Assembly (NCBI GenBank): GCA_902796675.1
Contig: CADBQA010000145.1
Span: 1 to 41,248, forward strand
Source of the DNA: an uncultured Ruminococcus sp.
GTDB taxonomy: Bacteria > Bacillota > Clostridia > Oscillospirales > CAG-272
DNA length: 41,248 bases
Direction of reading: 5' to 3'
Shown piece after piece: positions 1-41,236 of this stretch. Position 1 is the stretch's first letter. Every line of letters begins with the position of its first letter. The notes beneath the pieces are model-generated. The model saw nothing but the letters and a program-made list of their open reading frames with translations, was not told the DNA's origin and made no database searches. The position numbers and the translations under genes were made by a program.

Positions 1-1
1 C

Positions 2-2269
2 GCACTGTCTATGCTTTTGGTCGCCGCGATCCTGATGGTCGGTTCGACTTACGCGTGGTTCACGCTGTCAACGGCGCCCGAAGTCAAGGGCATCACGACG
101 AGCATCGGCGCTAACGGCAACCTTGAGATCGCGCTTCTGAATGCTACGAGTTACGCCAGCACGGCTGCTGACCTCGGGATCATTTCCAACGTCGGCGACT
201 CAATGGAAAATACAACGAACTGGACTGTAGATCAGGCCAACCATACTTGGGGTAACCTTGTAGATCTCGGTGTGGCTACATACGGTCTTGCAAACATTAT
301 CCTTCTTCCCGCTGCGCTCAACATCACAAATCCCACTGCCGCAACCGGAACAGCACATACTATTGGCACATCTATTCTGAAAGCTCCCGGATACGGCGGA
401 GACGGCAGAGTTACTGTTGTCAACACCGATACGGTCACCGGTAAAGCTCAGGGCGCTGTGTTCACTCAGGATAACGCTTTCGCGGGCGTACGCGCTATCG
501 GCGTTGCGTCCGAAAGATCGCTTCGTCAGCAGGCATACGTTAATGCAACCGAAGCCCTCGCAGACGCGATTTCCAGCGCTGTTGCTACATCCAGAACTAC
601 CCTGAATGACTACGGCCAGGCGCTTAGTGCAATCATCGTCAGAGCAGCTATGGCTTCAGACCGCAACACTTTGACGTTCTCAGGTGCAGAGCTTTCCACG
701 CTCTCAAACGTTATAAACGGTCTAAATGACGCAAATGCATTTGTGCTTGAAGCAGTCAAGCAGGCTGCTCTAGCCGATCAGCTCGGCGAAGGCGGTGCAA
801 CGCTTGCAGATGACGCCGCTGTCACCGCACTTGTTGATCAGTACAACGCATATACCGAAACTGATATTGCAGGCCTTTCGTTGTCAACAGACGTAGCTGC
901 TGCGTTTGCAAAATATCAGTCGAATAAGACTGCTATTGCAACTGCTCAGGGTCATGTAACAACGGCTTCCACGGGCAGTGAACCTTATCCATACTCCGTT
1001 ATCAGCCCTATTCTCAATGATATTGCAAATGATAATGGTATCGGATTAAGAGCTTCCGGCAGCAGTACTATAGTTTCAATTTATGATACTGAAACGCATC
1101 AGCGCAAAGAAAGAGGCACACTCGAGACCGAACTCGGCGGTATATCTGCTATTGGTTCAGGCATGACCGTAATATTCGGCGAAGGTTCCGGATTGATCTA
1201 TGATCTTGCGAAAGCTGTCGGCAACTTCTCATCGAATTCATTCAATATCTCTGCTTCGGACGTGGGATTTACCGGCCTTTCTTCCAACATCCCCGTTTCC
1301 CTCATGACAAACGCCTCCAGCCCTATTCTTCCCGCGGCGCAGTCTTCGATTAACGGAGCTCCTACAGGCACAGGCGGAACTGCAGCGTACAGTATCAATC
1401 CTTACGGCTACGCTCTTGACTTCGGCGTCAGAACGAACGCAGACGGCGCAAATCTTCTTCTCCAGACGTCAGAAAAGCAGCGTATCTATAACGATCCTAA
1501 TAATCCGTCGACAAATGAGGATACTCTCGGCGAAGGTTCGTATCTTGAGTTCACTGCAACGGCAACGTTTGATGCAACAAAGGTAGCAAGACTTATGGAC
1601 GCTATCCGTATTGTATTTGCGGAACCCACAGCTGACGGATTCAACGTTCTTGCTATCGCAAAAACAGGTACACCGGTTACAACAGGCAACAATGTTAAGG
1701 CTGCTCTTGCGCTTTACGAATATACTCTTGAAGCCAAAGCGGGCGAGGCTCCTGTTCTGACTATCGGCGAAGCGAAGAAAGACACAAACGATAATCCCGA
1801 CTACACGATCGCAGCTCTCACGAAGAATCAGGCGAAGAAGATAACAGTTATTGTTTATCTCGACGGTGATATCGCTGACAATACGTTTGTTGCCAATGCA
1901 CCGACTTCTATGGCAGGCAAGCTGAACCTTCAGTTTACGACCGATAAGGCTCTTGTTCCTATGGAGAACGCGGCTCTTCGCGGAACTCTCAGCGAATCCG
2001 ATCAGGCAAAGGCAAGATTCAAAAGCCTCGTAACGGATCAGTTCAGCCAGGATCAGCTTACTCAAATCGCTACAGATGTAACTAATGGCGCGACTGGTTG
2101 GAAGAGTGCAATTACAACGGCATCAAGATTTATCTTGATAGCTGGAGAGAACGATCTTGATGCAGATCAACTTGTAACTGTGAACGCTGCGCTTGATATA
2201 ATCGAAGATAAAGCGAATGAGATAGAAGCGTGGAAAGAAACGTGGAATGCCGAACATCCCAACCCCTGA
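2..2269 (+). CDS. 5'-truncated large secreted protein with SipW-cognate (TasA/camelysin-class) signal region; putative major fibre/surface subunit (paralog 1)
   Basis: The reading frame is open to the window edge, upstream of the Met at 11. A hydrophobic segment is followed by STYAWFTLS, which resembles the GT-x-A-x-F motif of SipW-dependent signals (TasA has GGGTWAAFND). The protein is rich in A/T/S/G/N. The C-terminal VYLDGD...GKLNLQFTT block is shared with the ORFs at 2464 and 8136. G+C looks lower than in downstream genes. Confidence 0.75.
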   Translation, partial: ALSMLLVAAILMVGSTYAWFTLSTAPEVKGITTSIGANGNLEIALLNATSYASTAADLGIISNVGDSMENTTNWTVDQANHTWGNLVDLGVATYGLANIILLPAALNITNPTAATGTAHTIGTSILKAPGYGGDGRVTVVNTDTVTGKAQGAVFTQDNAFAGVRAIGVASERSLRQQAYVNATEALADAISSAVATSRTTLNDYGQALSAIIVRAAMASDRNTLTFSGAELSTLSNVINGLNDANAFVLEAVKQAALADQLGEGGATLADDAAVTALVDQYNAYTETDIAGLSLSTDVAAAFAKYQSNKTAIATAQGHVTTASTGSEPYPYSVISPILNDIANDNGIGLRASGSSTIVSIYDTETHQRKERGTLETELGGISAIGSGMTVIFGEGSGLIYDLAKAVGNFSSNSFNISASDVGFTGLSSNIPVSLMTNASSPILPAAQSSINGAPTGTGGTAAYSINPYGYALDFGVRTNADGANLLLQTSEKQRIYNDPNNPSTNEDTLGEGSYLEFTATATFDATKVARLMDAIRIVFAEPTADGFNVLAIAKTGTPVTTGNNVKAALALYEYTLEAKAGEAPVLTIGEAKKDTNDNPDYTIAALTKNQAKKITVIVYLDGDIADNTFVANAPTSMAGKLNLQFTTDKALVPMENAALRGTLSESDQAKARFKSLVTDQFSQDQLTQIATDVTNGATGWKSAITTASRFILIAGENDLDADQLVTVNAALDIIEDKANEIEAWKETWNAEHPNP

Positions 2270-2307
2270 TTCACTTTAAGTTTTAGCTTATTTTCTTTCG
2301 ATAAATA

Positions 2308-2390
2308 CCCTCCCGCCCTCGGGCGGGAGGGGTAAATCGAGGCGGTCCGCAGGGCCGACTTTTGCGCGTACCGGGCGTGCGCGCAAAAGT
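2308..2390 (+). terminator. Two strong GC hairpins downstream of gene 1; possible partial terminator or RNA-stabilising element
   Basis: Hairpin 1 is CCCTCCCGCC-CTCG-GGCGGGAGGG (2308-2331). Hairpin 2 is ACTTTTGCGCG...CGCGCAAAAGT (2358-2368 paired with 2380-2390). Neither has an adjacent U-tract; the nearest T-run lies at about 2409-2417. Confidence 0.35.
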
Positions 2391-2435
2391 GGATCCTGCG
2401 ACGGATTCTTATTTTTGAAAACAAGTATACATATA

Positions 2436-2450
2436 CGGTCAAATTGACCG
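2436..2450. promoter_or_regulatory. Perfect 7-1-7 palindrome CGGTCAA-a-TTGACCG just upstream of gene 2; candidate operator or small hairpin
   Basis: Read directly from the sequence. It ends 13 nt before the TTG start at 2464 and abuts the AGAGGA ribosome-binding site. Confidence 0.25.
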
Positions 2451-2463
2451 AGAGGACGGGAAA

Positions 2464-3453
2464 TTGGAAGCAAGCAAAAAAAGACGGCGCAGGACGTTTT
2501 TGTACCTCTGGATCCTGCTCGGACTGCTCGTACTTCTCGTCGCCGCAACTTACACCTGGTTTTCACTTTCGCAAACTCCTCACGTCAACGACATGGCGAT
2601 GTACGTAAACGCGGAGTCGGGCCTTGAGCTCGCTCTCGAGTACGACGCGCCGGATGACGAGTGGGGGCAGAAGATCGATTTTCTCGATATGGTGGACGAC
2701 GACTATCCGCTGAAACCGGCGACGTGGTCGGACGCAAGACAGAGCTTCGCAGCCATCCGTTACGGGCTCGACGGCAGACTCACCGACGAGATAGTCCCGC
2801 TGACGGACGGTATGAACGCAAACAGACGCGACGCCTACGGGTACTACGTAACGGGCGCGTTTTACGCGAGGACGCTGATGCCATGCACCGTGTCGCTCGC
2901 CGAGGCGGTAGAGCTTAACGAAGGTGAAAACGGAGCCGGTACATACGTCATCGGCACGCCTCTTTGGGACGACGAGGAGCTCGTTCACACGGACGGCGGC
3001 AGCGGCGCGGAGTGCGCGGTGAGGATAGGGCTCAGGATCACGCCTGTTGACAAAGACGGGGCGGCGAAGGGCGACACGGAATTCTTCATATACGAGCCGA
3101 ACTGCGACGTTCATATCGAGGACGCCGAGGGATACGTCGACACCCCGAACGTCGACGGGGGCGACACTCTTACGGACCGCGATCATATGATCCTTCAGGA
3201 GGCGTCGACCTGGACCGAGGCGTATCCTGTCAGACACGACGTTACTATAAAAGACCTCGGAAAATTCATTGAAAACAGGACTCTTTTCTCGCTCGAGAGG
3301 GGCGAAATCGTTAAAATAGAGCTTTACGTCTGGCTTGAGGGTCAGGACGTGGACTGCACGAACAGGATCGAGGACGCAAAGATCATGGCGAATCTTCAGT
3401 TCCACACGGACTACAGCGGACAGACGGGGCTCGACATTATACCGAACGATTAA
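2464..3453 (+). CDS. Secreted protein with SipW-cognate signal region (TasA/camelysin-like paralog 2)
   Basis: TTG start 7 nt after AGAGGA. An n-region KKRRRR and a hydrophobic core are followed by ATYTWFSLS. The C-terminal YVWLEGQDVDC...ANLQF block and a FIYEPN block are shared with ORF 8136. Confidence 0.8.
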   Translation: MEASKKRRRRTFLYLWILLGLLVLLVAATYTWFSLSQTPHVNDMAMYVNAESGLELALEYDAPDDEWGQKIDFLDMVDDDYPLKPATWSDARQSFAAIRYGLDGRLTDEIVPLTDGMNANRRDAYGYYVTGAFYARTLMPCTVSLAEAVELNEGENGAGTYVIGTPLWDDEELVHTDGGSGAECAVRIGLRITPVDKDGAAKGDTEFFIYEPNCDVHIEDAEGYVDTPNVDGGDTLTDRDHMILQEASTWTEAYPVRHDVTIKDLGKFIENRTLFSLERGEIVKIELYVWLEGQDVDCTNRIEDAKIMANLQFHTDYSGQTGLDIIPND

Positions 3454-3503
3454 CGGATAGGATCCGTTTTATATGGAAAGCAATAATTGAAGGGAGTAAT
3501 TCC

Positions 3504-4556
3504 ATGAAAAAGAAAAACGCCAGCGTCACTGTCAATGAAGAAGCGACAGCTCCTGAAAAGAAGGAGAAGAAGGGCAGAAAGATAGCGAATATTATCATAA
3601 ACGTTATCCTTGTCATCGCCATCATTATTGCGGCGCTCAGTACTTACATCTCGTTTGTAAGTTCGTCAGGCAACGGTGTGCCGAGCATTTTCGGAATTGA
3701 AATGCTCTCGATACAGACCGATTCAATGGTGCCGACGATAAATCCCGGCGACCTTATCATCGACAAGGAAGTCAAGGACGCGTCGGAGCTCCACACGGGC
3801 GATATCATCACTTATTGGACTGTCATCGACGGCGAGCGCGTGCTCAACACGCACAGAATCGTTGAGATCTACGACGGCGGTAATTATCTTATCTTTGCCA
3901 CGAAGGGTGATAACAACAACACGGAGGACCCGCTGACCGTTCATGAGTCCGAGATCGTCGGCGTATACAGCAGATACAACGCCGAAACGGGTGAGGATGA
4001 AGGCGCGACGAAAATAAAGGGTCTCGGCAAGGTATTCGATTTTCTGCAGACAAGCACGGGATTCCTTCTCGTGGTCGTACTCCCTGTCGCTCTGTTCTTC
4101 CTGTATCACCTCATACAGTTCTTCCGCGTGCTCTTTGAGTATCAGTCCGTTAAGAACAGACTCCGCTTTGAGCAGGAACGCGAGGATGCGGACCGCGCCG
4201 AGCGCGAGGCTGAAAAAGAGGCTGCGGACGACGGTGAAAAGGCGGCTGAGCGCGAAAAACTCGAAGAAGAGCTTCGCGAAAAGCTGAAGAAAGAACTTAT
4301 CGAGAGCGGCGCTATCCCGGCAGAAAAAGCCGAAGAGCAGGCGGCTCCCGAAGAAGCGCCCGCGGAACCCGAAAAAGCGGCACCCACGGAAGAGGAGATC
4401 CGCGCCGAGATAGAGGCGAAGATACGCGCCGAATACGAGGCGAAACTCGCCGCCGCAAAGCAGGACGCCGAGAAGGCGGAAGACGCGGCGGAAAAAACGG
4501 TCGAAGAAGCAACGGACGCCGTATCCGCTGACGCCGAAGAGAAAAAAGAAGATTGA
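3504..4556 (+). CDS. Signal peptidase I, ER/archaeal S26B type (SipW-like), with a long C-terminal Glu/Lys/Ala-rich tail
   Basis: AAGGGAG ribosome-binding site and an N-terminal TM helix. The catalytic Ser lies in TDSMVPT (codon 3723-3725), a His in NTHRIV, and there is a TKGDNN box; together these match the Ser/His SipW-type signature. A second TM (GFLLVVVLPVALFFLY) is followed by a charged tail of about 140 aa. Confidence 0.85.
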   Translation: MKKKNASVTVNEEATAPEKKEKKGRKIANIIINVILVIAIIIAALSTYISFVSSSGNGVPSIFGIEMLSIQTDSMVPTINPGDLIIDKEVKDASELHTGDIITYWTVIDGERVLNTHRIVEIYDGGNYLIFATKGDNNNTEDPLTVHESEIVGVYSRYNAETGEDEGATKIKGLGKVFDFLQTSTGFLLVVVLPVALFFLYHLIQFFRVLFEYQSVKNRLRFEQEREDADRAEREAEKEAADDGEKAAEREKLEEELREKLKKELIESGAIPAEKAEEQAAPEEAPAEPEKAAPTEEEIRAEIEAKIRAEYEAKLAAAKQDAEKAEDAAEKTVEEATDAVSADAEEKKED

Positions 4557-4602
4557 TCCTCTTAAATTAATCACGCCGCGTGCGGCGCTGACGAGGTAGA
4601 TA

Positions 4603-6180
4603 ATGGACCACTTTTTACATTACCTGTTCATGGATCTGGGACGTCTTGTCAAGTCCTTCATCCAGATATTCATATCCTTCTTTGATTTCGTACTGAACCT
4701 GTTCAACTTCAAGGAGCGCTATGAGATCATAAAGAATACGACGAGCGATTTTACGGTCTTCGAGTGGATAATGCTCGTAATAACCGAGATCATATTAGTC
4801 GCTCTCGCGGTATTTCTCCTTTACCTTCTCTTCAAGCTTTTGAAGAAGATCTTCCGTTTCCGCGTTTCCGTAAAGAAATACGACGAGCTCGCAAAGCAGG
4901 TCAAGATCCTGCAGCGCGACCTTCTCCGTGCAAACTATGAGAAGGACCGCCTGCTCCAGATGAAGGCGGCGGAGCTCGGCATTTCCGAGGATGCGCTTAA
5001 GGGAGAAGAGCCCGAAGAAGAGGAAAAGGGAGAGGGCGAGGACTTCGTTCCGCTTCAGAACCGCAACACGATGGAGTCACCTCTTGTCGACCCCGAGGAG
5101 AGCCGTTTCTTCAGACTCACTTCCGTAGACAACTATTACAAGACGGAGTATAAGGCGCCGACGTACGACGATTCGCTCACTCTGCCGGACATTTGCGACA
5201 GGTTCAGAAGATATACCGCTTATTATCTGAAGCTTTATTACGATATCGACATGATGCGCTACTTCATCGCCTCGATGGGTACCGCGCGCATTATCATCCT
5301 TCAGGGTATATCGGGTACCGGTAAAACGTCGCTTCCTTATGCGTTCGGCAAGTTCGTCGGAGTCGACACGACAGTCGTTTCCGTACAGCCGTCCTGGCGT
5401 GAGAGGACCGAGCTTTACGGTTACTACAACGAGTTTACGAGAAAGTATATGGAGACGGACTTCCTTCGCGCCATTTACGAAGCGAACTTTTACCGTGATC
5501 CTCACATCATCATTCTCGACGAGATGAACATCGCGCGCGTTGAGTACTACTTCGCCGAGATGCTCTCCATCCTCGAGCTTCCCCGCAAAGAGGAATGGAA
5601 GGTCGACATCGTAACGGCGATGTGGGAGAACGACCCCGTTCTCATAGAAAACGGCACCGTTCCGATAAGCGACAACATCTGGTTCGTCGGCACCATCAAC
5701 AACGACGACTCGACGTTCGCCGTCGCGGATAAGGTTTACGACCGTGCGATACCGATCGACCTTGACAGCCGCGCCGATCCGTTCGAGTGCGAGCCCGCGG
5801 AGCAGATCACGATCTCAACAGAGCATCTCAACGCTCTGTTCGATCAGGCGAAGCGCGATTATCCTCTCTCGGAAGAGATGATCGACAAGCTCGAAAATAT
5901 GAATATGTATCTTATAAAGAACTTCCGTCTTGCATTCGGTAACCGTATTATGAAGCAGGTAAAGGATTTCGTTCCCTGCTTCGTCGCATGCGGCGGCACC
6001 GAGCTTGAAGCGGTAGACTTTATAATCGCAAAGAAAGTTCTCCGTAAATTCGAGTCTCTCAGCCTCGGATTTATGAAGGACGAGCTCACGAAGTTCAGCG
6101 CGTATCTCGACCGCACGTTCGGCAAGAACAAGATGGTCACGTGTAAGGACTACGTAGAGCTTCTCAAGAAGAACAACTGA
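4603..6180 (+). CDS. Membrane-anchored McrB-family AAA+ (AAA_5) GTPase-like protein lacking a DNA-binding N-domain
   Basis: Walker A GISGTGKT (5305-5328) and Walker B IIILDEMN (Asp-Glu at 5518-5523). DEMNIARVEYYFAEMLSILE and GTINNDDSTFAVADKVYDRA resemble the McrB-family DE(I/M)NRA and (M)NTADRS blocks as I recall them, and the NxxD is retained (5698-5709). The N-terminus has a strongly hydrophobic helix (WIMLVITEIILVALAVFLLYLLF) and a charged coiled-coil-like linker. Confidence 0.8.
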   Translation: MDHFLHYLFMDLGRLVKSFIQIFISFFDFVLNLFNFKERYEIIKNTTSDFTVFEWIMLVITEIILVALAVFLLYLLFKLLKKIFRFRVSVKKYDELAKQVKILQRDLLRANYEKDRLLQMKAAELGISEDALKGEEPEEEEKGEGEDFVPLQNRNTMESPLVDPEESRFFRLTSVDNYYKTEYKAPTYDDSLTLPDICDRFRRYTAYYLKLYYDIDMMRYFIASMGTARIIILQGISGTGKTSLPYAFGKFVGVDTTVVSVQPSWRERTELYGYYNEFTRKYMETDFLRAIYEANFYRDPHIIILDEMNIARVEYYFAEMLSILELPRKEEWKVDIVTAMWENDPVLIENGTVPISDNIWFVGTINNDDSTFAVADKVYDRAIPIDLDSRADPFECEPAEQITISTEHLNALFDQAKRDYPLSEEMIDKLENMNMYLIKNFRLAFGNRIMKQVKDFVPCFVACGGTELEAVDFIIAKKVLRKFESLSLGFMKDELTKFSAYLDRTFGKNKMVTCKDYVELLKKNN

Positions 6181-6269
6181 CATAAACGGGCGACGTCGCG
6201 CCGCGGGACTACGGTCCGGCGGCGTGCGGCGTGACGTCACGGTATGGATTCGTACGGAGGTGTAACGGT

Positions 6270-8111
6270 ATGGCGGAAATAGAAAGGATCCGTTCGGGCG
6301 ACGAGGACAAGTCGCTGATCGACCCTATATATAAAAAGTTCGTCAAGGGAACTCTTCGCGCCATAGGAAGCACCGAGTTTTATGAGTTCTTTATGGACGC
6401 GCTCTCCAAGGCGGACAATGAGTTCCAGTTCTCGAACAGAAAGCTCGAGAAGGTCGTGGATCTGGTGTGGGTCGATACGATAAACGGCGCTCTCGGCGCT
6501 TTTCAGAACATCGTCGGCAACCCGAGAAACGTCATCAAAGAGGAAGAACTCATCGTCAGCATCGCAAACGCGAAGAAGGCGGGACCGGAGACCGTACGTC
6601 ACCTTGCGCAGCACGCGGCGCTCGTCGACGAATATCATGAAGAGACCGGCGATATCCGTCCCGGCAGGCTTATGCAGAGATACCGCGAGGACACGATAGG
6701 CATTTATGAAAACCGTCTCGTCTTCACGGCGATGGAATACGCATACAGATTCGTAAAGATCCGTCACGACGCTCTTTTTGAAGCGATGAGCGACGAGTTC
6801 GGCGCGAAGCTGAAGGTGCGCTCGGATATGGACAGCGCGACGGAACACGTTCATATGGATATGTTCCTGCACATCAAAGAGGTCGACTCCGCGCTTGAAA
6901 CCGACGACAAAAACTCACAGGTGTTCGCTACGATATCGAGGATGTACCGCATTCTCGGCTCGTTTATGAACACCGGATTCGCGCAGCAGTTATCCCAGCT
7001 TCCGCGCATAAAGGGCAAGATCAACATCACGAACGTTCTTAAAAAGAACAAAGATTACCACAAGATACTGGAGCTTTTCAACTTCTTAAAGAATTACGAC
7101 CAGATAGGTTATACTATCAAGGTAACGGAGCAGAATCCGGAGATCAACGAACAGTTCCAGCGCGATATTTACCACAACATACTTTTCAATTACCTTATCC
7201 TCAAGGGTTATCTCGAGAGCGAGGAGGACCGCAAGGTCCCGACGGCTTCAAAGACTCAGCGCAAGATGCTGAAGCCGAAGTTCATCCACGAGATCATCGA
7301 GGAGATAACAGAGGATTACGACCTTCCCGACGTCGAGGTCCGCAAGGTCCTCATCGAGGAGCTCACGAAGGCTCAGCTTATGCAGGAGGAGCGCGAGGAG
7401 CGCCGCCGCCTCGTAGAGGAGCAGGAGCAGAGAAGAAGAGAAGAAAAAGAGCGCGAGCGCGCAGAAAAAGCCGCGGAGCGCGAGAGAATAAAGCAGGAGA
7501 AGGCGGCGGAACGCGAACGTATCCGCCAGGAAAAGGCTGCCGAGCAGGAACGCCTTATGATCGAGCGCACCGAGCGCGAGATAGAGGACAGACGGCGCAG
7601 CATGCTTCTGCGTGAAGAGATCAAACGCTTTACGGACAACCTCGAAGAACAGCTCTTCCGCCGCAGCGATATGGAAAAGGAAAAGGCGGAGGGACTTCTC
7701 GATTACGCGGACGCCGCGGAGATACTTGAGGACGTCGAGAAATTCCAGAAAGAAGAAGCGGACAGAGCGCGTCAGAGAAGACGCGAAGAGCGCGAGAGAC
7801 TCCGCCGCGAGGCGCAGATAGCCGAGCAGAAGGCGAAGGAAGAAGCGGAGCGCGCGCGTATTGCAAAAATAGAAGAAGAAAACAGGTTACGTCACGAACA
7901 GGAGGAGCGGGAGCGCGTGGAATACGAGGCTCTCGTTGCGCACGACAAAGAAGCGCTCGCACCTCTGGAGGCGGAAATAACCGTGTTCTCCGCAGCCCTT
8001 GCCGGGCAGCTTGAGCGCCGCCGTGTACAGGCTGAAAAGGCGAGAGCCGCCGAGGCCGCGCGCGAAGAACGCCGCCGCCTCCGTCAGGCTCAAAAGGTGG
8101 ACGTAAGATAA
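6270..8111 (+). CDS. McrC N-terminal-like (DUF2357-like) protein without recognisable nuclease, fused to a ~240-aa Glu/Arg/Lys-rich helix
   Basis: GGAGG sits 9 nt upstream of the ATG at 6270; the track ORF begins at an upstream GTG at 6231. TIGIYENRLVFTAMEYAY (YENRL at 6705-6719) resembles the T-x-ENR(F/L)(V/L) block of McrC/DUF2357 N-domains. No D...(D/E)xK (DAKY-type) nuclease block was found by eye. From about 7380 onward the sequence is almost pure E/R/K/A/Q, with tandem EKAAERERI(K/R)Q units. Confidence 0.65.
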   Translation: MAEIERIRSGDEDKSLIDPIYKKFVKGTLRAIGSTEFYEFFMDALSKADNEFQFSNRKLEKVVDLVWVDTINGALGAFQNIVGNPRNVIKEEELIVSIANAKKAGPETVRHLAQHAALVDEYHEETGDIRPGRLMQRYREDTIGIYENRLVFTAMEYAYRFVKIRHDALFEAMSDEFGAKLKVRSDMDSATEHVHMDMFLHIKEVDSALETDDKNSQVFATISRMYRILGSFMNTGFAQQLSQLPRIKGKINITNVLKKNKDYHKILELFNFLKNYDQIGYTIKVTEQNPEINEQFQRDIYHNILFNYLILKGYLESEEDRKVPTASKTQRKMLKPKFIHEIIEEITEDYDLPDVEVRKVLIEELTKAQLMQEEREERRRLVEEQEQRRREEKERERAEKAAERERIKQEKAAERERIRQEKAAEQERLMIERTEREIEDRRRSMLLREEIKRFTDNLEEQLFRRSDMEKEKAEGLLDYADAAEILEDVEKFQKEEADRARQRRREERERLRREAQIAEQKAKEEAERARIAKIEEENRLRHEQEERERVEYEALVAHDKEALAPLEAEITVFSAALAGQLERRRVQAEKARAAEAAREERRRLRQAQKVDVR

Positions 8112-8135
8112 TTTTCAAACGGGAGGTGAGCGCCG

Positions 8136-9446
8136 ATGCGGTCAATGAAGAAAATGTCAGCGAAACTTTTCGCCGCCGTCATGACGCTCATCATCGCCAT
8201 TGTGATCGCCGTTTCCGTGACTTACGCGTGGATGACGCTTTCCACAAGTCCGTCGGTAAGCGGAGCGACGATAAAGATCGGGGGAGGTACTAACATCCTC
8301 CTCGCGCCCGACGTGACAAAGACCATGGACGGCGTTACCGTCCATTATCCCGGCGCGTTCACGGATACCCTCACGTTCGATTCGGAAGCGTACGCGTATC
8401 TTTCCGACCTCGCCGGACTTACTCCCGTATCGACTGCCGACGGCGTCAACTGGTTTTTTCCGAAGTATGACGCTGCGACGGGCGAAATAAAGGATTTCGC
8501 TCTGTTTGACGTCGACGACACGCTCTCAAAGGCGAACGTCACGGGAAACCGTTCCGGCGGTTACGTTTACATCGACTTCTGGGCGGTCGCGCCCGGGTCC
8601 GATTACAAGCTTCGCGTTTCGACCGATACCAAGGCGACGAGAGGCTCGGCGGACAGCGAGTTTTACGACGGCTCGTCACTTCTTGAGATACCTTCCGTGG
8701 TTTCAAACGGCGAGGGCGGATGGCGTCTCGGCGAGACGAAGGGAAATATTGACACGGTCGCCCGCGTGGGATTTCTCGTAAATTCGGGAAGCGCCGAGGC
8801 AAAATCGGTAACCGGATACGTATACAGCGCGGACTACGACGCGAGATTCAAAAAGCTCGTCGGCAGATATCAGGAGCCGGGCGACGCCGCGGCTGTAAAC
8901 GCCGACAATAAGTTTACGATATACGAGCCCAACGGCACGAGACATACAGACGGCGAGCAGGGATGCTACCGCGTTACGAATCCCATCGGATACGACGCTC
9001 TCGGCAATGCTTCTCCGTCAGACGTTTCAGACCGTCTCACCGTTCAGAGCGCAAGCGGATGGAAGCGCGGCGCGGGAGAGGGCAGAATGATAGACGAGGT
9101 GTTCTCCGGCGTCGCCGGTGAAAAGACGGAAGACGAAGCGCGCGAAACGCTTAAGGCTTTCATTGAATCGGAATCGATCAACTATATTCAGACCGGCGTC
9201 TTCTTCCGAAGCACAGAGACTCTCATAAACAACGCGGGAGACGACGGATATCTCCCGGCGGCGGAGGTCGAAAATCTCCTGACGTCGGGTGCAACGGACG
9301 ATGTGTATATAACCGAGCTTGAAAAGAACGCGCCGCAAAGGATAAGGATGTTTATCTGGCTCGAGGGTCAGGATGCCGACTGTGTGGCGTCCGGCGCGGG
9401 AGCGACTTATTTCGCGCTTAATCTTGAGCTTGCCGGGGCAAATTGA
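8136..9446 (+). CDS. Secreted protein with SipW-cognate signal region (TasA/camelysin-like paralog 3)
   Basis: GGGAGGTG ribosome-binding site 7 nt upstream. A hydrophobic core is followed by VTYAWMTLS. FTIYEPN and the C-terminal FIWLEGQDADC...LNLEL are shared with ORF 2464. Confidence 0.8.
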   Translation: MRSMKKMSAKLFAAVMTLIIAIVIAVSVTYAWMTLSTSPSVSGATIKIGGGTNILLAPDVTKTMDGVTVHYPGAFTDTLTFDSEAYAYLSDLAGLTPVSTADGVNWFFPKYDAATGEIKDFALFDVDDTLSKANVTGNRSGGYVYIDFWAVAPGSDYKLRVSTDTKATRGSADSEFYDGSSLLEIPSVVSNGEGGWRLGETKGNIDTVARVGFLVNSGSAEAKSVTGYVYSADYDARFKKLVGRYQEPGDAAAVNADNKFTIYEPNGTRHTDGEQGCYRVTNPIGYDALGNASPSDVSDRLTVQSASGWKRGAGEGRMIDEVFSGVAGEKTEDEARETLKAFIESESINYIQTGVFFRSTETLINNAGDDGYLPAAEVENLLTSGATDDVYITELEKNAPQRIRMFIWLEGQDADCVASGAGATYFALNLELAGAN

Positions 9447-10252
9447 TGAAGAAAAAGACGCACGACAGTGAAGCCGGAAAGGGCTCAAAGTCCTTCAAGG
9501 CATACGTTATATCGACCGTCGTACTCGTTCTTGCCGTTCTGCTGTGCGCCATAGTCACGATACAGACGCTCGTTCAGGGGTACGTCAGTATTTTCGGTTA
9601 CAGCGCGTTTCGCGTCGTGACCGGGAGTATGGAGCCGACGATGTCCGTCGGCGCGGTCCTTCTCTCGAAGGACGTCGACATACACGACGTTGCGGTGGGG
9701 GATATTATCTGCTTCCGTTCGAGGGAGTCGAGCCACTACGGGTCGATAGTCACTCACCGCGTGGTTTCGATAACCGCGTCGGAGGACGGCTCGCCGATGC
9801 TCGAGAGCCGCGGCGACGCGAACTATTCGTCCGATCCGTATTTAGTCGAGGAAAACAACCTCATCGGCAAGGTCATCTGGTATACCGGTAAGGAAGGATT
9901 TTTTAACAAGGTACTTTCATTTATGTCTGGTAAAATCGGTTTTCTCGCCGTCATAGTCATTCCCGTTCTCGTAATAGCGGGTCTGATCCTCCACGGCGTC
10001 GGGCGGAACATCCGCGGGGAGCTTGACGACACGCTCGATATGCTCTCAAGGGAAAATAAGAACTCAAATAAGAATGAAAAGAAGAAGGATCCGTCGCCGG
10101 ACGATCCTTTGCCCGGATATAAGTATCTTACAAGAAGAGACTATAACGAGATCTATGAGGCGCTGCGGCGCGAGATTTGGAAGGAACTAAACTGCAATGT
10201 GGAAGCGAATGAGAGAAAAACTGAATATTCGGGGGAAAACTCTCAGGACTGA
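9446..10252 (+). CDS. Signal peptidase I, ER/archaeal S26B type (SipW-like), second copy
   Basis: The ATG at 9446 overlaps the upstream TGA (TGATG); the track start is a TTG at 9443. Motifs present are VTGSMEPT (catalytic Ser), VTHRVV (His) and a RGDAN box, plus N- and C-terminal TM helices and a short Lys/Asn-rich tail. Confidence 0.85.
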   Translation: MKKKTHDSEAGKGSKSFKAYVISTVVLVLAVLLCAIVTIQTLVQGYVSIFGYSAFRVVTGSMEPTMSVGAVLLSKDVDIHDVAVGDIICFRSRESSHYGSIVTHRVVSITASEDGSPMLESRGDANYSSDPYLVEENNLIGKVIWYTGKEGFFNKVLSFMSGKIGFLAVIVIPVLVIAGLILHGVGRNIRGELDDTLDMLSRENKNSNKNEKKKDPSPDDPLPGYKYLTRRDYNEIYEALRREIWKELNCNVEANERKTEYSGENSQD

Positions 10253-12221
10253 CAGGCAGTCGGAAAACGGGAGCGAGGGCGGCGTCTACGACGAAAAGAT
10301 GCGCCGCGTACGCCGCGTTGTAAGGAGCCAGGCTCTCCTTGCGGGCGGCACTCTGCTCGTCGTTGTGATCCTCATATTCGCGATGACCGCGGCATGGTAT
10401 ACGAACGTTTCGAGAACGTCGACGCTGACGTTCAAAGCGGAGTCGTGGGGCTTTGATCCTGACAACATAACTGTCGGGACCGCGGCTATCGGCGCCGCTC
10501 CCGGCAGATCCGGCATCGTACCGATCGAGATCGACAATTCAAAGTCCGCCGACCCTGTGAAAATTTACGTCAATGTGTCGAAAAGCGAAATGTCGGAGGA
10601 ACTCAAGAGAAGGATCTTTTTCTATGCTGATACGTCGGAGGAGATCTCCGGCGAGATGGTGTCGCGCGTTTACGTCGGCGCTCTCCGGGACGGGGCGTAC
10701 GCGTACGATATCCTCCCAGGGCAGAAGCTCGTGATGTCGGATGATTTTTGCAGCGACGTGCCGCTCAAGTGGAGATGGGTCTACGATATGGAAGGCTATT
10801 ATTTCCGCGGAACGGTGAACAACGTCAGCGCGACGGCGGAGGAGTATATAAGACCCGTCGAATACGATCTTGACCGCGCGACCTTTGAAAAGACGAACGG
10901 CGTTCCGACAGGCGCGCCCGTGACGATATACGGCAAGAGCGTAGCTGAATTTCTCGACGACGTCTCCTCCCGCGACGGATACGAGGGAAGGGTCGACGCG
11001 TCCGACGCCCGCGTGATCGGGTCGTCGAGTTATTATCCCGTGAAAGTCGACGAGAACGGCTCGGGGATCTGGCTCTACCTTTGCAGTTACGCGGAGATAG
11101 ATCAGGGTATCAGTTATGACACGAATCTCGGAGAGAATACCGAGTTTGAAGCGAAAATAACCGTAACGGCGGTCAGCGTACCGTCTGAGGTCAAAAACGT
11201 ATCGTCCGCCGCGGAGCTCGCCTCCGCTTTGAACGATCCCGAGGTCAACTCGGTAAAGCTTTCGTCCGATATCGAGATCCCGTCAGCCGTCACGCTGGCG
11301 GCGGGAGCCGACACGACTCTCGACCTCGGCGGGAATAGGATCACCTACACCGGCGGCGAGACGGAGTATTCGATGATAGTCGCCTCTGAAGGCTCAAAGC
11401 TGAACGTCATCGGCGGCGAGATCGCCGGCAACGGAAATTCGAGCGGCGTCGGCGGAACGGTCGACAGCATAGCCGTCGAATCGGTCGGCGCGGAGGTCTC
11501 TCTCTCCGGCGTCACAGTCTCGGGATTCGACACCGCGGTCTGCGTCTCCGATAACGACGGGACCGGCGCGGACTCGATCCTTCGCCTTACGGATTGCGAG
11601 CTCGATATGCAGAACCTCGGCGTTTTCATAAAGGGCAACGGATCGGCGTCCGAGGCGCATACGACGGTTATTATAGACAACTGCAAAATTAACGGCGAAA
11701 CGTACGCCGGTATTTCCGGACAGGGCGCGACTGACCTCTGGGGCGTCGACCTTGTCGTCAGAAACAGCGAAATATCCGGATATTATACGTCCGTATATCT
11801 TCCCGCGCGCGACACAGGCGCGTATATTAAGGACAGCACGTTATCCGGCATCACCGGAATCGTCGTCAAGGGCGGCACGGTCATAATCGACGGCTGCAGC
11901 GTCACGGGAAACGGAGCGCACGTCGCAGCGGCGGCGTCGGGCGGCGGCTGGACCGACACCGGCGACGGCGTCTACGTCGAGGCGGTATACAACTGGAACG
12001 CTGACGTTACGGTAAAGAACAGTACCGTAAACAGCACGTACGCTTACGCTGTCGAGCTCTTTGGAAAGGCGGGCTCCGGCAGCGGAAGGATAGCCCTCGA
12101 GGGCGGTTCATACGCCGGCGGCGCGGGAGGTGCGAACTGGAACAGTATCGGCACATTCACCGTCAAGGGATGCACGTTTAGCGGGAGCGTCCCGGGCGAC
12201 GTGACGAGACTTGACGGGTGA
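10197..12221 (+). CDS. Secreted protein with divergent SipW-type signal region, TasA-like N-domain and C-terminal parallel beta-helix repeats
   Basis: The n-region MRRVRRVVR plus a hydrophobic core is followed by MTAAWYTNVS. APGRSGIVPIEIDNSKSADPVKIYVNVS resembles the PGD...N.G strand of TasA/camelysin. The C-terminal half carries repeated G-x-V/I-x-I/V-x-N/G-S/C turns (for example GGTVIIDGCSVTGNG and VKNSTVNSTYAYAVEL), typical of a right-handed beta-helix. The start is uncertain: ATG 10197 overlaps the previous gene by 56 nt, and the alternative is ATG 10299. Confidence 0.7.
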   Translation: MWKRMREKLNIRGKTLRTDRQSENGSEGGVYDEKMRRVRRVVRSQALLAGGTLLVVVILIFAMTAAWYTNVSRTSTLTFKAESWGFDPDNITVGTAAIGAAPGRSGIVPIEIDNSKSADPVKIYVNVSKSEMSEELKRRIFFYADTSEEISGEMVSRVYVGALRDGAYAYDILPGQKLVMSDDFCSDVPLKWRWVYDMEGYYFRGTVNNVSATAEEYIRPVEYDLDRATFEKTNGVPTGAPVTIYGKSVAEFLDDVSSRDGYEGRVDASDARVIGSSSYYPVKVDENGSGIWLYLCSYAEIDQGISYDTNLGENTEFEAKITVTAVSVPSEVKNVSSAAELASALNDPEVNSVKLSSDIEIPSAVTLAAGADTTLDLGGNRITYTGGETEYSMIVASEGSKLNVIGGEIAGNGNSSGVGGTVDSIAVESVGAEVSLSGVTVSGFDTAVCVSDNDGTGADSILRLTDCELDMQNLGVFIKGNGSASEAHTTVIIDNCKINGETYAGISGQGATDLWGVDLVVRNSEISGYYTSVYLPARDTGAYIKDSTLSGITGIVVKGGTVIIDGCSVTGNGAHVAAAASGGGWTDTGDGVYVEAVYNWNADVTVKNSTVNSTYAYAVELFGKAGSGSGRIALEGGSYAGGAGGANWNSIGTFTVKGCTFSGSVPGDVTRLDG

Positions 12222-12232
12222 CGGGAGGCGGT

Positions 12233-12823
12233 ATGATGAGCAATCTGAAACGTAAGACCGCGCTTCGCCTCACAATATCCGCCGTTATAATCGTTCTGAC
12301 AGCCCTGTGTCTTATCGGCGTGACAGCGGCGCGCATCAGACAGTCGGCAGAGAGCGAAAAAATCAAATTGAAATATTCATTCGCGTCCGACAGCGTCCAC
12401 ATACAGAAAAACGGAAGCTATTCGCCGCCTGACGGATGGAGCGAAGTTTCGGGCGACAAAACGGAGTACGAGCTCTCGTTCGTTCTCTCAAACGCCGCCG
12501 CGGACGACGACGTCGCAAAGTACAGCCAGACGGCGTACGTCGAGGTCTTCGTTACGGAAGGCGCCGGCGACGGCGTGAGCGTGAAACTCGCGGCGGACGG
12601 CAGAACGGTCGAAGGTTCTTACCGCGAAGCGGAAGAAGGTTCCGCGATATATGAGAAGTACGGCGCGGGGCGTGTTTACGGCTTTGTAAATCCCTCGGGC
12701 GACATGTACACATGGGCGATGCCCGCCGGCAGCGCGGTCTTCGTTCCGATGACGCTGACGGTCTCGGGCGAGGCGGCAAACCCCGCGGCGGTGACAGTCA
12801 TCGCGTGCGGCATCCCCTCATAA
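12233..12823 (+). CDS. Small membrane-anchored or secreted protein, unknown function
   Basis: GGGAGG ribosome-binding site at 12223-12228, with ATG at 12233 or 12236 (the track starts at GTG 12218). N-terminal KRK plus a TM helix (ISAVIIVLTALCLIGVTAA). No recognisable domain. Confidence 0.6.
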   Translation: MMSNLKRKTALRLTISAVIIVLTALCLIGVTAARIRQSAESEKIKLKYSFASDSVHIQKNGSYSPPDGWSEVSGDKTEYELSFVLSNAAADDDVAKYSQTAYVEVFVTEGAGDGVSVKLAADGRTVEGSYREAEEGSAIYEKYGAGRVYGFVNPSGDMYTWAMPAGSAVFVPMTLTVSGEAANPAAVTVIACGIPS

Positions 12824-12854
12824 GTCAGCATCTTTTGCCAAAGGAGGCTCACGG

Positions 12855-13916
12855 TTGAAAAAAAGAATAACGCCGTTTGTCCTCGCGGCGGCGATAATAC
12901 TTATTTGTACAACAGTCTTTGCCGTCGGCTTCGCCGGCGCGAGAACAGCCAATACGGATACCTGGACGGGTAAGATCCTTCCCAAGGAGACGCCCGACGC
13001 ATCGAACGTGTCGAGCGATCTTCTGACAAAGAACGGTCAGTCGGTCCTTCTCAGAAACAGGACGGAGGAGTTCAGCGTGCCGATAAAGCTCACGTCGTCC
13101 GACGGCAAAATCAAGGGCACGTTATCAGCAAACTCGGGCAGCGCGCCGGTCAGTCTGTCTCTTTCCGAGACGTCGCTTTCCCTCGCGGACACCGCGTCAA
13201 AAACGGTGACGCTCACCGTGAGCCCGAAGGACGGTTTTGCGGACGCTGAGGGCGTCACGTTCGGCGTCGAGTGGCGCGGTGAGCACGAAACGCTTCGCGC
13301 GTCTTTCTTTATCGACAACAGAACGGAGAGAGCGGAGTACGATTCGGCGACGATAACGGCGCCGGAGGTTTATCTCAAGGGCGAGCCTTTCTATATCACC
13401 GCAAACGTCAGGGCTACTCTTCGGTTTTCGACGGGAGAGGGCGTACAGGGAGCATTTCCCTCCGGTACGAAGTACAAAGGTGAAGACGGCGGCGAGTGTT
13501 ATCTTTACGACGCCGACTATATAACCGCGGAGCTCGGCGAGACGGCGATCGACTTATCGCGCGCCGAGTACAGCGGAACGGTGCGGATAACCTGCGGGTC
13601 CGTTACGAAATCTCTTACGGCGATAAATCCCATAAAGTCATCGTACACTGACAGGATACTGACGATAGTCGGTGACGCGTCCGTCGACCTCGGTCTTCCT
13701 TATACGTGGGAGGGCATCGCGCCGGAGTTTACGATCGAGCGCCTTTCACACGGCGCGTGGGAGAGCGCGGCAGACGTCACGCTCCGCGACATTTCCGGCA
13801 GAGCGCGTCTCACGACGGACGGCGCCGCGGCGGGCACTTACAGGCTGATTATTTCGTGGTCGGCGTCGGGTCACGTCCTGTACGGCGAAGAGATACCTTT
13901 CTTCGTGATACATTGA
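12855..13916 (+). CDS. Membrane-anchored or secreted protein, unknown function (last gene of the operon)
   Basis: TTG start 7 nt after AAGGAGG. N-terminal KKR plus a TM helix (FVLAAAIILICTTVFAVGFAG). Rich in Ser/Thr and probably beta-rich. Followed by an intrinsic terminator. Confidence 0.65.
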   Translation: MKKRITPFVLAAAIILICTTVFAVGFAGARTANTDTWTGKILPKETPDASNVSSDLLTKNGQSVLLRNRTEEFSVPIKLTSSDGKIKGTLSANSGSAPVSLSLSETSLSLADTASKTVTLTVSPKDGFADAEGVTFGVEWRGEHETLRASFFIDNRTERAEYDSATITAPEVYLKGEPFYITANVRATLRFSTGEGVQGAFPSGTKYKGEDGGECYLYDADYITAELGETAIDLSRAEYSGTVRITCGSVTKSLTAINPIKSSYTDRILTIVGDASVDLGLPYTWEGIAPEFTIERLSHGAWESAADVTLRDISGRARLTTDGAAAGTYRLIISWSASGHVLYGEEIPFFVIH

Positions 13917-13950
13917 AAATCGGAGAGCATATCTCCGATTTTTATTTTTC
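13917..13950 (+). terminator. Rho-independent terminator closing the 13.9-kb operon
   Basis: Stem AAATCGGAGA (13917-13926) pairs with TCTCCGATTT (13932-13941). The loop is 5 nt and the stem is followed by TTATTTTTC. Confidence 0.7.
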
Positions 13951-13983
13951 CCGTTTCCGTTTTGTAACAATTTCGGCGGCGTA

Positions 13984-14012
13984 TTGAATTATTCGAGATA
14001 AAATAGTATAAT
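13984..14012 (+). promoter_or_regulatory. Sigma-A-type promoter for the 14060-20070 operon
   Basis: TTGAAT (13984-13989), a 17-nt spacer, then TATAAT (14007-14012). Confidence 0.6.
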
Positions 14013-41162: not shown

Positions 41163-41236
41163 GCGAGTGTAGTTCAGTGGTAGAATTCCAGCCTTCCAAG
41201 CTGGTTATGTGGGTTCGATTCCCATCACTCGCTCCA
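41163..41236 (+). tRNA. tRNA-Gly (anticodon UCC), encoded CCA
   Basis: Cloverleaf read by eye. Acceptor stem GCGAGTG/CACTCGC, anticodon stem CCAGC/GCTGG with loop CTTCCAA, T-loop TTCGATT, discriminator T followed by CCA. Confidence 0.9.

Follow-up and report, generated by a model that had tools for sequence, protein, structure and literature searches.

The ten co-directional genes at the start of this 41,248-bp contig from gut/rumen Clostridia, all of which is here called the window, are on balance best explained as a typical CoCoPALM system. As such they would form a chromosomal operon, of a kind found in anaerobic Bacillota, whose exported surface paralogs are coupled to a GTPase pair of McrBC descent, anchored in the membrane and devoid of a nuclease. 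Its most likely function is to process or assemble, with coupling to GTP, a surface fibre that depends on SipW. The association was named by Bell et al. 2024, whose single paragraph on CoCoPALM likewise infers assembly coupled to the GTPase and defers the analysis to a later publication (PMC11090510); no such later analysis was found in the literature. The claim of an earlier note on this DNA that no described system has this gene content must therefore be given up, since exactly this association already bears a name.

Organization of the operon

The ten plus-strand open reading frames claimed for positions 1-13,950 are all found (Table 1), and the gaps given for them (194, 50, 46, 89, 24, -1, an overlap or 46, 11 and 31 nt) are reproduced with internal ATG starts. 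Their number is a lower bound because g1 is cut by the contig edge: it is open at its 5' side, with neither a stop nor a start upstream, and continues past the left end. Relatives carry three to four extra genes upstream and often a giant paralog (~1,100-1,900 aa) downstream. The set was borne out as one conserved operon, and its flanks are housekeeping genes. The terminator at its end (fold z = -4.1), which the earlier note had taken for the only convincing one, is real, but the end-only claim is incomplete, since two strong stem-loops lie in the spacer between g1 and g2, with TTATTTTT after the second. This spacer folds at -84.2 kcal/mol (z = -6.1) and its stem-loops matched no Rfam family; they are possibly a partial terminator or an mRNA stabiliser 3' of the first subunit gene.

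Table 1. Features of the operon in the window; a slash within a signal marks the cleavage point
Feature	Position	Strand	Description
g1	2/11-2269	+	Large secreted paralog, 5'-truncated; at least 752-755 aa
Stem-loop pair	2308..2408	+	In the 194-nt g1-g2 spacer, both GC-rich; 2308-2331 and about 2345-2400
g2	2464-3453	+	Secreted paralog, 329 aa; signal VAATYT/WFSLSQ
g3	3504-4556	+	SipW-type signal peptidase I (S26B, Ser/His)
g4	4603-6180	+	Membrane-anchored McrB-like AAA+ NTPase, NxD clade
g5	6231 or 6270-8111	+	McrC-like partner; DUF2357 domain, then long E/R/K-rich coiled coil
g6	8136-9446	+	Secreted paralog, 436 aa; signal VSVTYA/WMTLST
g7	9443/9446-10252	+	Second SipW-type signal peptidase; C-terminal TM segment, short cytoplasmic tail
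g8	10197-12221 (start 10299 possible)	+	Secreted protein; signal AMTAA/WYTNVS
g9	12218 or 12233-12823	+	201 aa; N-terminal TM segment, without cleavage motif
g10	12855-13916	+	353 aa; ordinary signal peptide; weakly conserved
Intrinsic terminator	13914..13954	+	At operon end; 13-bp stem (13914-13944), then T run

The GTPase pair and its linkage to sipW genes

From its N-terminus, the g4 protein runs through two hydrophobic helices (residues 2-46 and 52-83) and a coiled coil (90-125), followed by a disordered acidic linker that leads to the AAA+ domain (194-525) with Walker A GISGTGKTS, Walker B ILDEMN and the signature GTINNDDS; the transmembrane segment and coiled coil are visible in its AF2 model. 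The N-x-D-[D/E] form of the signature is common to the 150 best representatives, and E. coli McrB was the only match in a PDB sequence search. In g5, whose orthologues start at MAE (position 6270), a DUF2357 domain of about 330 aa with an invariant YENR scores 28-31.6 bits (cut-off 23.3) and is matched by 18/18 orthologues, and the C-terminal region is variable in length and unconserved. No PD-(D/E)xK nuclease was found in g5, and no nucleic-acid-binding domain in either protein. By motif and profile, the earlier description of an McrB/McrC-like pair thus stands for g4, as an NxD-clade McrB-like protein, and for the DUF2357 domain of g5, but not for the McrC nuclease, which g5 lacks. Two results count against the best explanation: the Foldseek neighbours of g4 are MCM, RavA, dynein and BrxL, not McrB specifically, and a PDB sequence search with g5 gave no McrC match.

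The NTPase was found in at least 588 genomes at species level. Among 70 related loci, the DUF2357 gene comes next after it in 69 and a sipW gene occupies position -1 in 65; sipW lies within three genes in 48/49 loci, a motif-bearing protein is found in 45/49, and 40 of the 49 full loci have a second sipW. Of the 35 loci no shorter than 8 kb in a metagenome scan anchored on the signal motif, 30 hold the pair (29 by HMM and L186 by its C-terminal tail); the remaining five are truncated by the end of their contig or contain a subunit gene on its own, and the scan found no complete cluster of subunit and sipW genes of this paralog family without the pair. Gene content and order are conserved, and the coupling of sipW genes with the pair, whose constancy the earlier note had proposed to check, is not accidental.

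Alternatively, g4 and g5 could be a defence module (type IV restriction or CoCoNuT-like) that simply sits in, or guards, a surface-protein operon. In favour of this, g4 reaches 146.9 bits with PDC-M26A, a candidate-defence model of PADLOC, and its GTPase domain shares 37-40% identity with AAA+/DUF2357 pairs borne on plasmids, e.g. that of Deinococcus p96k. However, g5 has no PADLOC match, a transmembrane anchor replaces the DNA reader, and in all families the pair keeps its place, with sipW on one side and a subunit gene on the other. Because the pair has no nuclease, is about 70% identical across Lachnospiraceae and Oscillospiraceae, unlike fast-evolving defence genes, lies among housekeeping genes and has no full-length relative among the plasmids and phages searched, we favour a non-defence reading, and a defence module is very improbable.

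The secreted paralogs and their peptidases

The four N-terminal motifs quoted in the earlier note are present, each following the pattern basic-hydrophobic-T-[Y/A]-[A/T]-W-[F/M/Y], with the g1 signal ending ...MVGSTYA/WFTLSTAPEV, and a six-frame scan of the whole 41 kb found the motif behind a hydrophobic stretch in these four genes only. Its [ST][YF]A-W-F-[TS] form recurs in 177 proteins across 82 loci. Their assignment to the SipW-cognate class is supported by an identical ATYAWFT in genuine TasA-family proteins adjoining sipW (L193, L178 and L204). In addition, a Ruminococcus subunit from the same system passes TIGR04088; a TIGR04088 search reported none of the four N-termini of the window, which counts against the fibre explanation.

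By profile comparison, g1, g2 and g6 group as paralogs: g1 matches the g2 family (hhalign, 97.3%), the short subunits (98.6%) and the giant downstream paralogs (100%), and g6 matches the g2 family (99.9% across 309 columns). The beta core of g1 is interrupted by an Ala-rich insert and its C-terminus bears a YLDGDxxDN...LNLQF motif; the confident AF2 model of g2 (pLDDT 88.7) combines an N-terminal signal helix with a beta-rich domain. According to hhalign, g8 is common to this family in its signal region only; its right-handed beta-helix, pectate-lyase-like "adhesive" domain (PF20585, 27.9 bits; PF13229, 25.3 bits) makes it a candidate adhesin. Comparison places both g9, which shows no significant hhalign link to the subunits and is kept only in closer relatives, and g10 outside the family.

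Both peptidases exceed the TIGR02228 cut-off of 51.85 (g3, 84 bits; g7, 89.3 bits) and bear the motifs SM(V/E)PT, THR(I/V)V and GD(N/A)N, in line with the earlier assignment to Ser/His S26B enzymes; they are of the SipW/archaeal type. Against the SipW model NF046067, g3 scores 95.7 bits, under the required 190. It has a second transmembrane segment, its cytoplasmic tail of about 140 aa is rich in E, K and A, and its catalytic S/H/D are conserved. The Ser and His columns were compared across 134 sipW-like genes from related loci; all 132 that have a residue there keep both, and the two enzymes of the window are intact at these positions.

Fibre, surface protein or regulated system

The TasA/camelysin label proposed earlier holds for the signal motif but is not supported for the mature domains, which form a separate paralog family: they have no PF12389 match, hhalign of the subunits against a 111-sequence TasA family gave 0.3-3.4% probability, a TasA HMM matched none of 1,025 ORFs from the loci, and TasA is missing from the top 50 Foldseek matches of the g2 model. 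The top two filament matches of g2 are 7ueg, the TasA-like archaeal bundling pilin AbpA (the best match, weak at E=0.015), and 7pnb, a Sulfolobus thread (E=0.2); nothing reached E<=0.001, and with TM-scores of 0.16-0.36 these matches are not significant. Since the best, if weak, matches are archaeal donor-strand filaments, we read the secreted proteins as probably fibre-forming.

A size of 750-1,900 aa is large for pilins and counts against a fibre. The paralogs might instead be wall monomers or sheets, that is, large non-filamentous adhesins or surface-layer proteins with dedicated export and processing, for which the GTPase pair would provide quality control or gating and not a fibre motor. 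Besides the size of g1 (752 aa) and its relatives (up to about 1,900 aa), this accords with the beta-helix domain of g8, the lack of TasA homology and of significant pilin folds, and the dockerin proteins encoded by carrier organisms, which therefore build elaborate surface assemblies. It is nevertheless unlikely: every paralog has a strictly conserved W-F-T-L-S mature N-terminus and a conserved C-terminal strand, as predicted for a donor-strand polymer, the best fold matches are such filaments, and the presence of several paralogs per locus, with an uncleaved membrane-anchored one ("u2") in relatives, recalls pilus operons with their major, minor and anchor subunits.

The pair could also be a cytoplasmic regulator, e.g. 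in envelope or c-di-GMP sensing, that controls expression or SipW activity while a TasA-like fibre forms by itself outside the cell, with no input of energy. In B. subtilis, SipW has a regulatory role for matrix genes through its C-terminal tail, and g3 likewise has a long cytoplasmic tail; moreover, an HD-GYP/EAL-like gene heads the operon in closer relatives. For TasA, polymerisation proceeds through donor-strand exchange and involves no motor (PMC9674648). However, sipW, McrB and McrC genes are strictly adjacent even in distant loci without the HD-GYP gene, the GTPase is membrane anchored and sequence conservation is extreme; thus a structural part of a machine fits better, and a regulator is quite improbable.

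Under the preferred CoCoPALM reading, precursors would cross into the membrane via Sec and be tethered by their basic-hydrophobic N-terminus until SipW cleaves after T-Y-A and exposes W-F-T-L-S. The next subunit would take up this strand in the manner of TasA, AbpA and archaeal threads, giving a heteropolymeric fibre of g1, g2 and g6 that bears g8 as adhesin, and u2 may serve as base or anchor in relatives. On the cytoplasmic face, a g4 ring with g5 plugged in may be linked by coiled coils to the charged SipW tail, and GTP hydrolysis would gate or drive subunit processing and hand-over.

Comparison with known systems

B. subtilis tapA-sipW-tasA and C. perfringens sipW-bsaA likewise have a dedicated SipW-type peptidase adjoining its substrates, the cleavage-site class T-aromatic-A/x-F (TasA is cut at TWA/AFND) and an expected free N-terminal strand. 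In contrast, the present locus has mature domains outside the TasA family, two peptidases, both under the cut-off for Bacillus SipW equivalogs, several large paralogs and an obligatory McrBC-derived GTPase pair. Since BsaA export is linked to type IV pilus proteins (PMC11580942), help from a machinery has precedent. AbpA (7UEG, PMC9245690) and the Sulfolobus threads (7PNB) are also beta-rich and processed by signal peptidase I, and the AbpA paper leaves the catalyst of strand exchange open (PMC9245690); apart from the weakness of the matches, the locus differs in its bigger subunits and multiple paralogs, whereas the archaeal operons have no known GTPase.

With E. coli McrBC (6HZ4, 6UT6), g4 aligns at both Walker motifs (A and B) and around the signature loop, and g5 has in common the DUF2357 domain by which McrC plugs the ring of McrB and stimulates hydrolysis of GTP (PMC11090510). 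However, g4 and g5 have neither the DNA-reading N-domain nor the PD-(D/E)xK nuclease, and g4 is membrane anchored with an NxD rather than NxxD signature. Type IV pilus and Tad systems offer only an analogy, a cytoplasmic hexameric NTPase coupled across the membrane to polymerising, membrane-tethered precursors processed by a dedicated peptidase; their ATPases are unrelated (PilB/TadA versus AAA+ McrB-like), the locus peptidase cleaves behind the hydrophobic segment instead of in front of it, and the subunits of the locus would shed the hydrophobic helix rather than retain it. From CoCoPALM there is no difference in kind: both have an NxD-clade McrB-like GTPase whose fused N-terminus holds a transmembrane segment and a coiled coil, a neighbouring McrC homologue (DUF2357) that also has a coiled coil, and associated signal-peptidase-family genes, and are abundant in Bacillota. 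The present analysis adds four things to the text of Bell et al.: the family of substrates, the motif at which they are cleaved, the layout with two peptidases and the absence of the nuclease in this clade.

A member of the CoCoPALM kind of GTPase and signal peptidase loci

The ten-gene operon at the left end of the window (g1 to g10, numbered 5' to 3') is a new member of a kind of locus that has been named but is uncharacterised. Bell et al. (eLife 2024, PMC11090510) reported a further large clade of NxD McrB-like GTPases, named it CoCoPALM in a one-paragraph description, and left its analysis to a forthcoming paper. Our literature search found no such follow-up paper or experimental study, and CoCoPALM is absent from the text-form supplementary files of the CoCoNuT paper. 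The window has three of the four defining features: a shortened NxD signature followed by D or E (GTIN-N-D-D-S in the GTPase g4), an adjacent coiled-coil-bearing McrC homologue with a DUF2357 domain (g5), and association with the signal peptidase family (two TIGR02228-positive genes, g3 and g7). The locus therefore belongs to the named kind, and the claim of an earlier note that no described system has this gene content falls. The fourth feature, FtsB homology, is undetected (Pfam found no FtsB or DivIC homology of the g4 N-terminus at E<=0.1), though the same architecture of a transmembrane segment plus a coiled coil is seen in g4 (hydrophobic helix 52-83, helix 90-125). To the published description the present locus and its relatives add the substrate family, a predicted cleavage site between T-Y-A and W-F-T, the two-peptidase layout, an uncleaved membrane-anchored paralog, a beta-helix candidate adhesin, the absence of the nuclease, and cultivable carriers such as Eubacterium ruminantium FB3002 (L079).

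Organization and surroundings of the operon

The gene set and gene order are established, and together with the motifs and the closing terminator they confirm what had been observed from the sequence at first sight. The intergenic distances noted earlier were reproduced with internal ATG starts backed by orthologue alignments, as for g5. Ten co-directional ORFs are indeed present, but upstream of g1 there is neither a stop nor a start codon and, since the window is the entire 41,248-bp contig, the operon is truncated on the left by the contig end. Similarly, the terminal hairpin with its T run stands, but the statement that it is the only one is incomplete: two strong stem-loops also lie in the spacer between g1 and g2, with TTATTTTT directly after the second. 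An Rfam search of this structured spacer matched no family; the stem-loops may terminate transcription in part or stabilise the transcript, and so fix how much of the first subunit is made relative to the others.

In closer relatives the operon opens with a gene for an HD-GYP-like (HD_5) protein with a degenerate EAL domain, and next comes u2, an uncleaved membrane-anchored paralog of the secreted proteins; both would fall outside the window, past its left edge. These two genes hint that c-di-GMP may exert control and that the structure may have its base in the membrane. On the right, the AAA_28 NTPase gene that follows the terminator, to which a nearby promoter-like site belongs, is not kept beside the operon in relatives. 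Further downstream are two dockerin-bearing proteins, so the host is likely a cellulosome-type organism. One related locus, L186, has the usual run of DUF2357, g6, sipW and g8 genes followed by an extra g1, g2 and sipW set, and appears to have been rearranged or in part duplicated.

Coordinates of features in the window and in related loci
Feature	Location	Strand	Description
Operon	window 1-13,950	+	ten ORFs
g1-g2 spacer	window 2270-2463		194 nt; two long GC-rich stem-loops, -84 kcal/mol, fold z = -6.1
g3 cytoplasmic tail	window 4134-4556		g3 residues about 211-350
g4	window 4603-6180		McrB-like GTPase
SRFFRLTSVDNYYKTEY	window about 5095-5150		g4 residues 165-183
g5 start	window 6270		internal ATG, backed by orthologue alignments
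Closing terminator	window 13914-13944	+	13-bp hairpin, then T run
Promoter-like site	window 13984-14012		belongs to the AAA_28 NTPase gene
AAA_28 NTPase	window 14060-15142		first gene past the terminator; C-terminal extension
C39-like peptidase	window 15143-16945		Big_3 and dockerin domains
CotH kinase-like protein	window 23312-25468		dockerin
tRNA-Gly(TCC)	window 41163-41236		right end of contig
HD-GYP-like/EAL gene	L001 478-2905; L002 1264-3700		opens the operon in closer relatives
Rearranged cluster	L186 2435-11474		see text

The GTPase and its partner

g4 carries a Walker A motif (GISGTGKTS), a Walker B motif (ILDEMN) and a signature loop (GTINNDDS). With the g4-family profile, the sole sequence matches in the PDB were to E. 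coli McrB (E = 0.002-0.006), in an alignment spanning all three motifs. The loop reads N-x-D-[D/E], the NxD variant, in the 150 best of 755 strong representatives (KDD 39, NDD 29, RDE 8, QDE 7, and others), and thus the Asp at +2 is invariant among them. The fold by itself cannot place g4 with McrB, since Foldseek with the AF2 model (pLDDT 71.7) returned generic helix-2-insert AAA+ proteins (MCM, RavA, dynein, BrxL), McrB itself not being among them. In this model, hydrophobic helices up to residue 83, which anchor the protein in the membrane, are followed by a helix at 90-125, a disordered acidic linker, and the AAA+ domain; the canonical modified-DNA-binding N-domain of McrB is absent, its place being taken by the hydrophobic helices, coiled coil and linker. 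One segment of g4, SRFFRLTSVDNYYKTEY, does not vary between families, although its AF2 pLDDT is below 50. Because many distant GTPases of the NxD clade begin to align to g4 precisely there, the GTPase module seems to include this segment as a conserved extension at its N-terminal end, possibly a partner-binding motif.

In the next gene product, g5, DUF2357 (the N-terminal domain of McrC) is matched above the gathering score, and all of 18 diverse orthologues match it too; beyond this domain g5 consists of an E/R/K-rich charged coiled coil whose length varies among orthologues. The McrC PD-(D/E)xK nuclease has been lost: no family match to it was found in g5, and no conserved domain follows DUF2357 in the 18 orthologues. 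A PDB profile search gave only coiled-coil noise with full-length g5 and nothing with its N-domain. Hence the McrB/McrC-like pair proposed earlier stands as an NxD McrB-like NTPase with a DUF2357 partner, but g5 is only partly McrC-like and has no nuclease.

Linkage of the pair to the signal peptidase genes

At least 8,000 close homologues of g4 were found, about 70% identical across Lachnospiraceae and Oscillospiraceae, and the NTPase is present in at least 588 species-level genomes. Linkage was counted in NTPase-anchored loci, 70 or 49 depending on the feature. The DUF2357 gene directly follows in 69 of 70 loci and sipW directly precedes in 65 of 70, which upholds the suggested coupling of the pair to the sipW genes; sipW lies at most three genes away in 48 of 49, a second sipW is present in 40 of 49, a u2-like gene in 48 of 49, and at least one protein with the signal motif in 45 of 49. 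In the reverse direction, metagenome contigs were searched for back-translated ATYAWFT, and 93 of 120 stretches contained a member of the subunit family. Among those of at least 8 kb, 30 of 35 have an McrB-like gene, a DUF2357 gene, or both; in the other five, either the contig ends within the cluster (three) or the subunit gene stands alone (two). Thus, as far as one motif and short contigs can show, no complete cluster of subunit and sipW genes of this family was found without the pair, an arrangement that the earlier note had named as evidence against its proposal. L186 had appeared to be such a pair-free cluster and was rejected, its edge ORF being the C-terminal tail of a DUF2357 protein.

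The linkage also bears on whether the pair is a defence module hitch-hiking in the operon. The PADLOC candidate-defence model PDC-M26A scores g4 at 146.9 bits, and the GTPase domain of g4 is 37-40% identical to that of pairs found on plasmids, in which an AAA+ protein of 800 aa accompanies a DUF2357 protein of 705 aa (L205, Deinococcus plasmid p96k); these sequence similarities would fit a common ancestry with defence systems of the CoCoNuT type. A hitch-hiking defence module is nevertheless the least likely explanation, because the nuclease is missing, the pair has a fixed position and is strongly conserved, housekeeping genes flank the operon, and no full-length relatives were found on plasmids or phages. 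A defence island was rejected on the same flanks, missing nuclease, and lack of full-length plasmid or phage relatives.

Signal peptidases and the signal class

Both peptidases pass TIGR02228 (archaeal/ER-type signal peptidase I; cut-off 51.85 bits), g3 with 84 and g7 with 89.3 bits, but fall under the 190-bit cut-off of NF046067, the Bacillus SipW equivalog, with 95.7 and 77.8 bits. They are therefore SipW-like and not orthologues of Bacillus SipW. The catalytic Ser and His are intact in both; of 134 aligned sipW-like genes of related loci, 132 have them and the other two are gapped there, and the Gly-Asp motif is nearly invariant. In addition, g3 has a second transmembrane segment followed by a cytoplasmic E/K/A-rich tail of ~140 residues. 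The tail is highly variable in length among g3 orthologues, whose total lengths range from 184 to 469 aa, and it may be where g3 meets the coiled coils of g4 and g5.

In all six frames of the 41 kb, T-[Y/A]-[A/T]-W-[F/M/Y] preceded by a basic and then a hydrophobic N-terminal stretch is found only in the secreted proteins g1, g2, g6 and g8. Across 177 proteins from 82 loci the consensus is [AS]-[ST]-[YF]-A-W-F-[TS]-L-S-x-x-P-E-V. By analogy with TasA, which is cleaved between TWA and AFND, the cut would come after T-Y-A and leave a mature N-terminus W-F-T. The proteins were also considered as type IV or Tad pilins and rejected, as they have no prepilin motif and the cut would come after the hydrophobic segment, not before it. 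TIGR04088 (cut-off 19 bits) does not report the four N-termini of the window even at E<=10; a homologous Ruminococcus subunit, L047, passes with 19.1 and 22.7 bits. Moreover, true TasA-family proteins in the metagenome loci L193, L178 and L204 (TasA-HMM E 5e-13 to 7e-5) bear an identical ATYAWFT motif, and in L178 and L204 their genes adjoin sipW. Thus the SipW-cognate signal class is probably the right one and common to TasA, whereas the family of the mature fold is not. No McrB-like gene is present in the recovered stretches of these three loci, whose proteins are a natural comparison set for CoCoPALM subunits.

The secreted proteins

By hhalign (97-99.9%), g1, g2 and g6 form a single paralogous family, which also takes in the short subunits (~230-370 aa) of distant loci, the giant proteins encoded downstream in relatives, and the C-terminal half of u2. 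g8 has only the signal region in common with this family and bears a beta-helix or pectate-lyase-like adhesive domain, and g9 and g10 are not related to it. The paralogs share a C-terminus in which (W/Y)-(L/I)-(E/D)-G-x-D-x-D-(C/N) is separated by ~12 residues from a last strand l-N-L-q-F; in g2 (residues 288-316) G293, D295, D297 and C298 are invariant, and the conserved loop before the last strand looks like a metal-binding one.

That the mature proteins are of the TasA/camelysin class, as had been proposed, is not borne out. Peptidase_M73 (PF12389) matches no secreted protein of the operon, and hhalign against a TasA family of 111 sequences, assembled with a TasA query that had been checked against 8AUR, gives 0.3% for g2, 3.4% for g6 and 2.8% for g1; the short subunits reach 40.7%, confined to 35 columns of the signal region. 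The TasA HMM has no match among 1,025 ORFs of the loci, and a PDB profile search with the g2 family gave chance matches only. The AF2 model of g2 (pLDDT 88.7, pTM 0.83) consists of a signal helix and a beta-rich domain, and Foldseek found no significant neighbour for it in the PDB. Its best match is the archaeal bundling pilin AbpA (7UEG), a TasA homologue, at E = 0.015 and probability 0.47, and the second filament match is the Sulfolobus thread (7PNB) at E = 0.2; TasA itself (5OF1 / 8AUR) is absent from the top 50. With structural matches of this strength, one alternative to a fibre is that the locus is an export route for surface proteins that are not filamentous.

A possible function and its relation to known systems

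From the earlier interpretation, the coupling to the pair and probably the signal class survive; membership of the TasA family and the status of an undescribed system do not. The boldest reading, to which we give somewhat less than even probability, is a novel Gram-positive fibre route, in which a membrane-anchored hexameric GTPase of restriction ancestry and a nuclease-less McrC plug would power or time SipW cleavage and strand hand-over. Precursors would be inserted via Sec and cut by SipW after T-Y-A, and the conserved W-F-T-L-S N-terminus would serve as the donor strand within a heteropolymeric fibre that the beta-helix protein tips or decorates. On the cytoplasmic face, g4 would form a ring with g5 in its pore, coiled coils would tie the ring to the SipW tail, and with GTP the ring would gate or drive both the processing of the subunits and their hand-over. 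Alternatively, the GTPase may be purely regulatory, beside a fibre that assembles by itself.

If the motor-driven fibre route is true, it would be widespread in Lachnospiraceae, Oscillospiraceae and Ruminococcus of the rumen and gut, and, if the function is right, hundreds of Clostridia of the gut and rumen, both cultured and uncultured, would have it as their main surface-fibre system. To our knowledge, AAA+ GTPases of the McrB kind are known only from DNA restriction, and here such a GTPase would have taken on the role of a membrane machine that assembles a protein polymer. The route would be a motor-driven counterpart of the "spontaneous" assembly of TasA and AbpA, and it would address the question, posed for TasA/AbpA-type filaments, of what catalyses strand exchange (PMC9245690).
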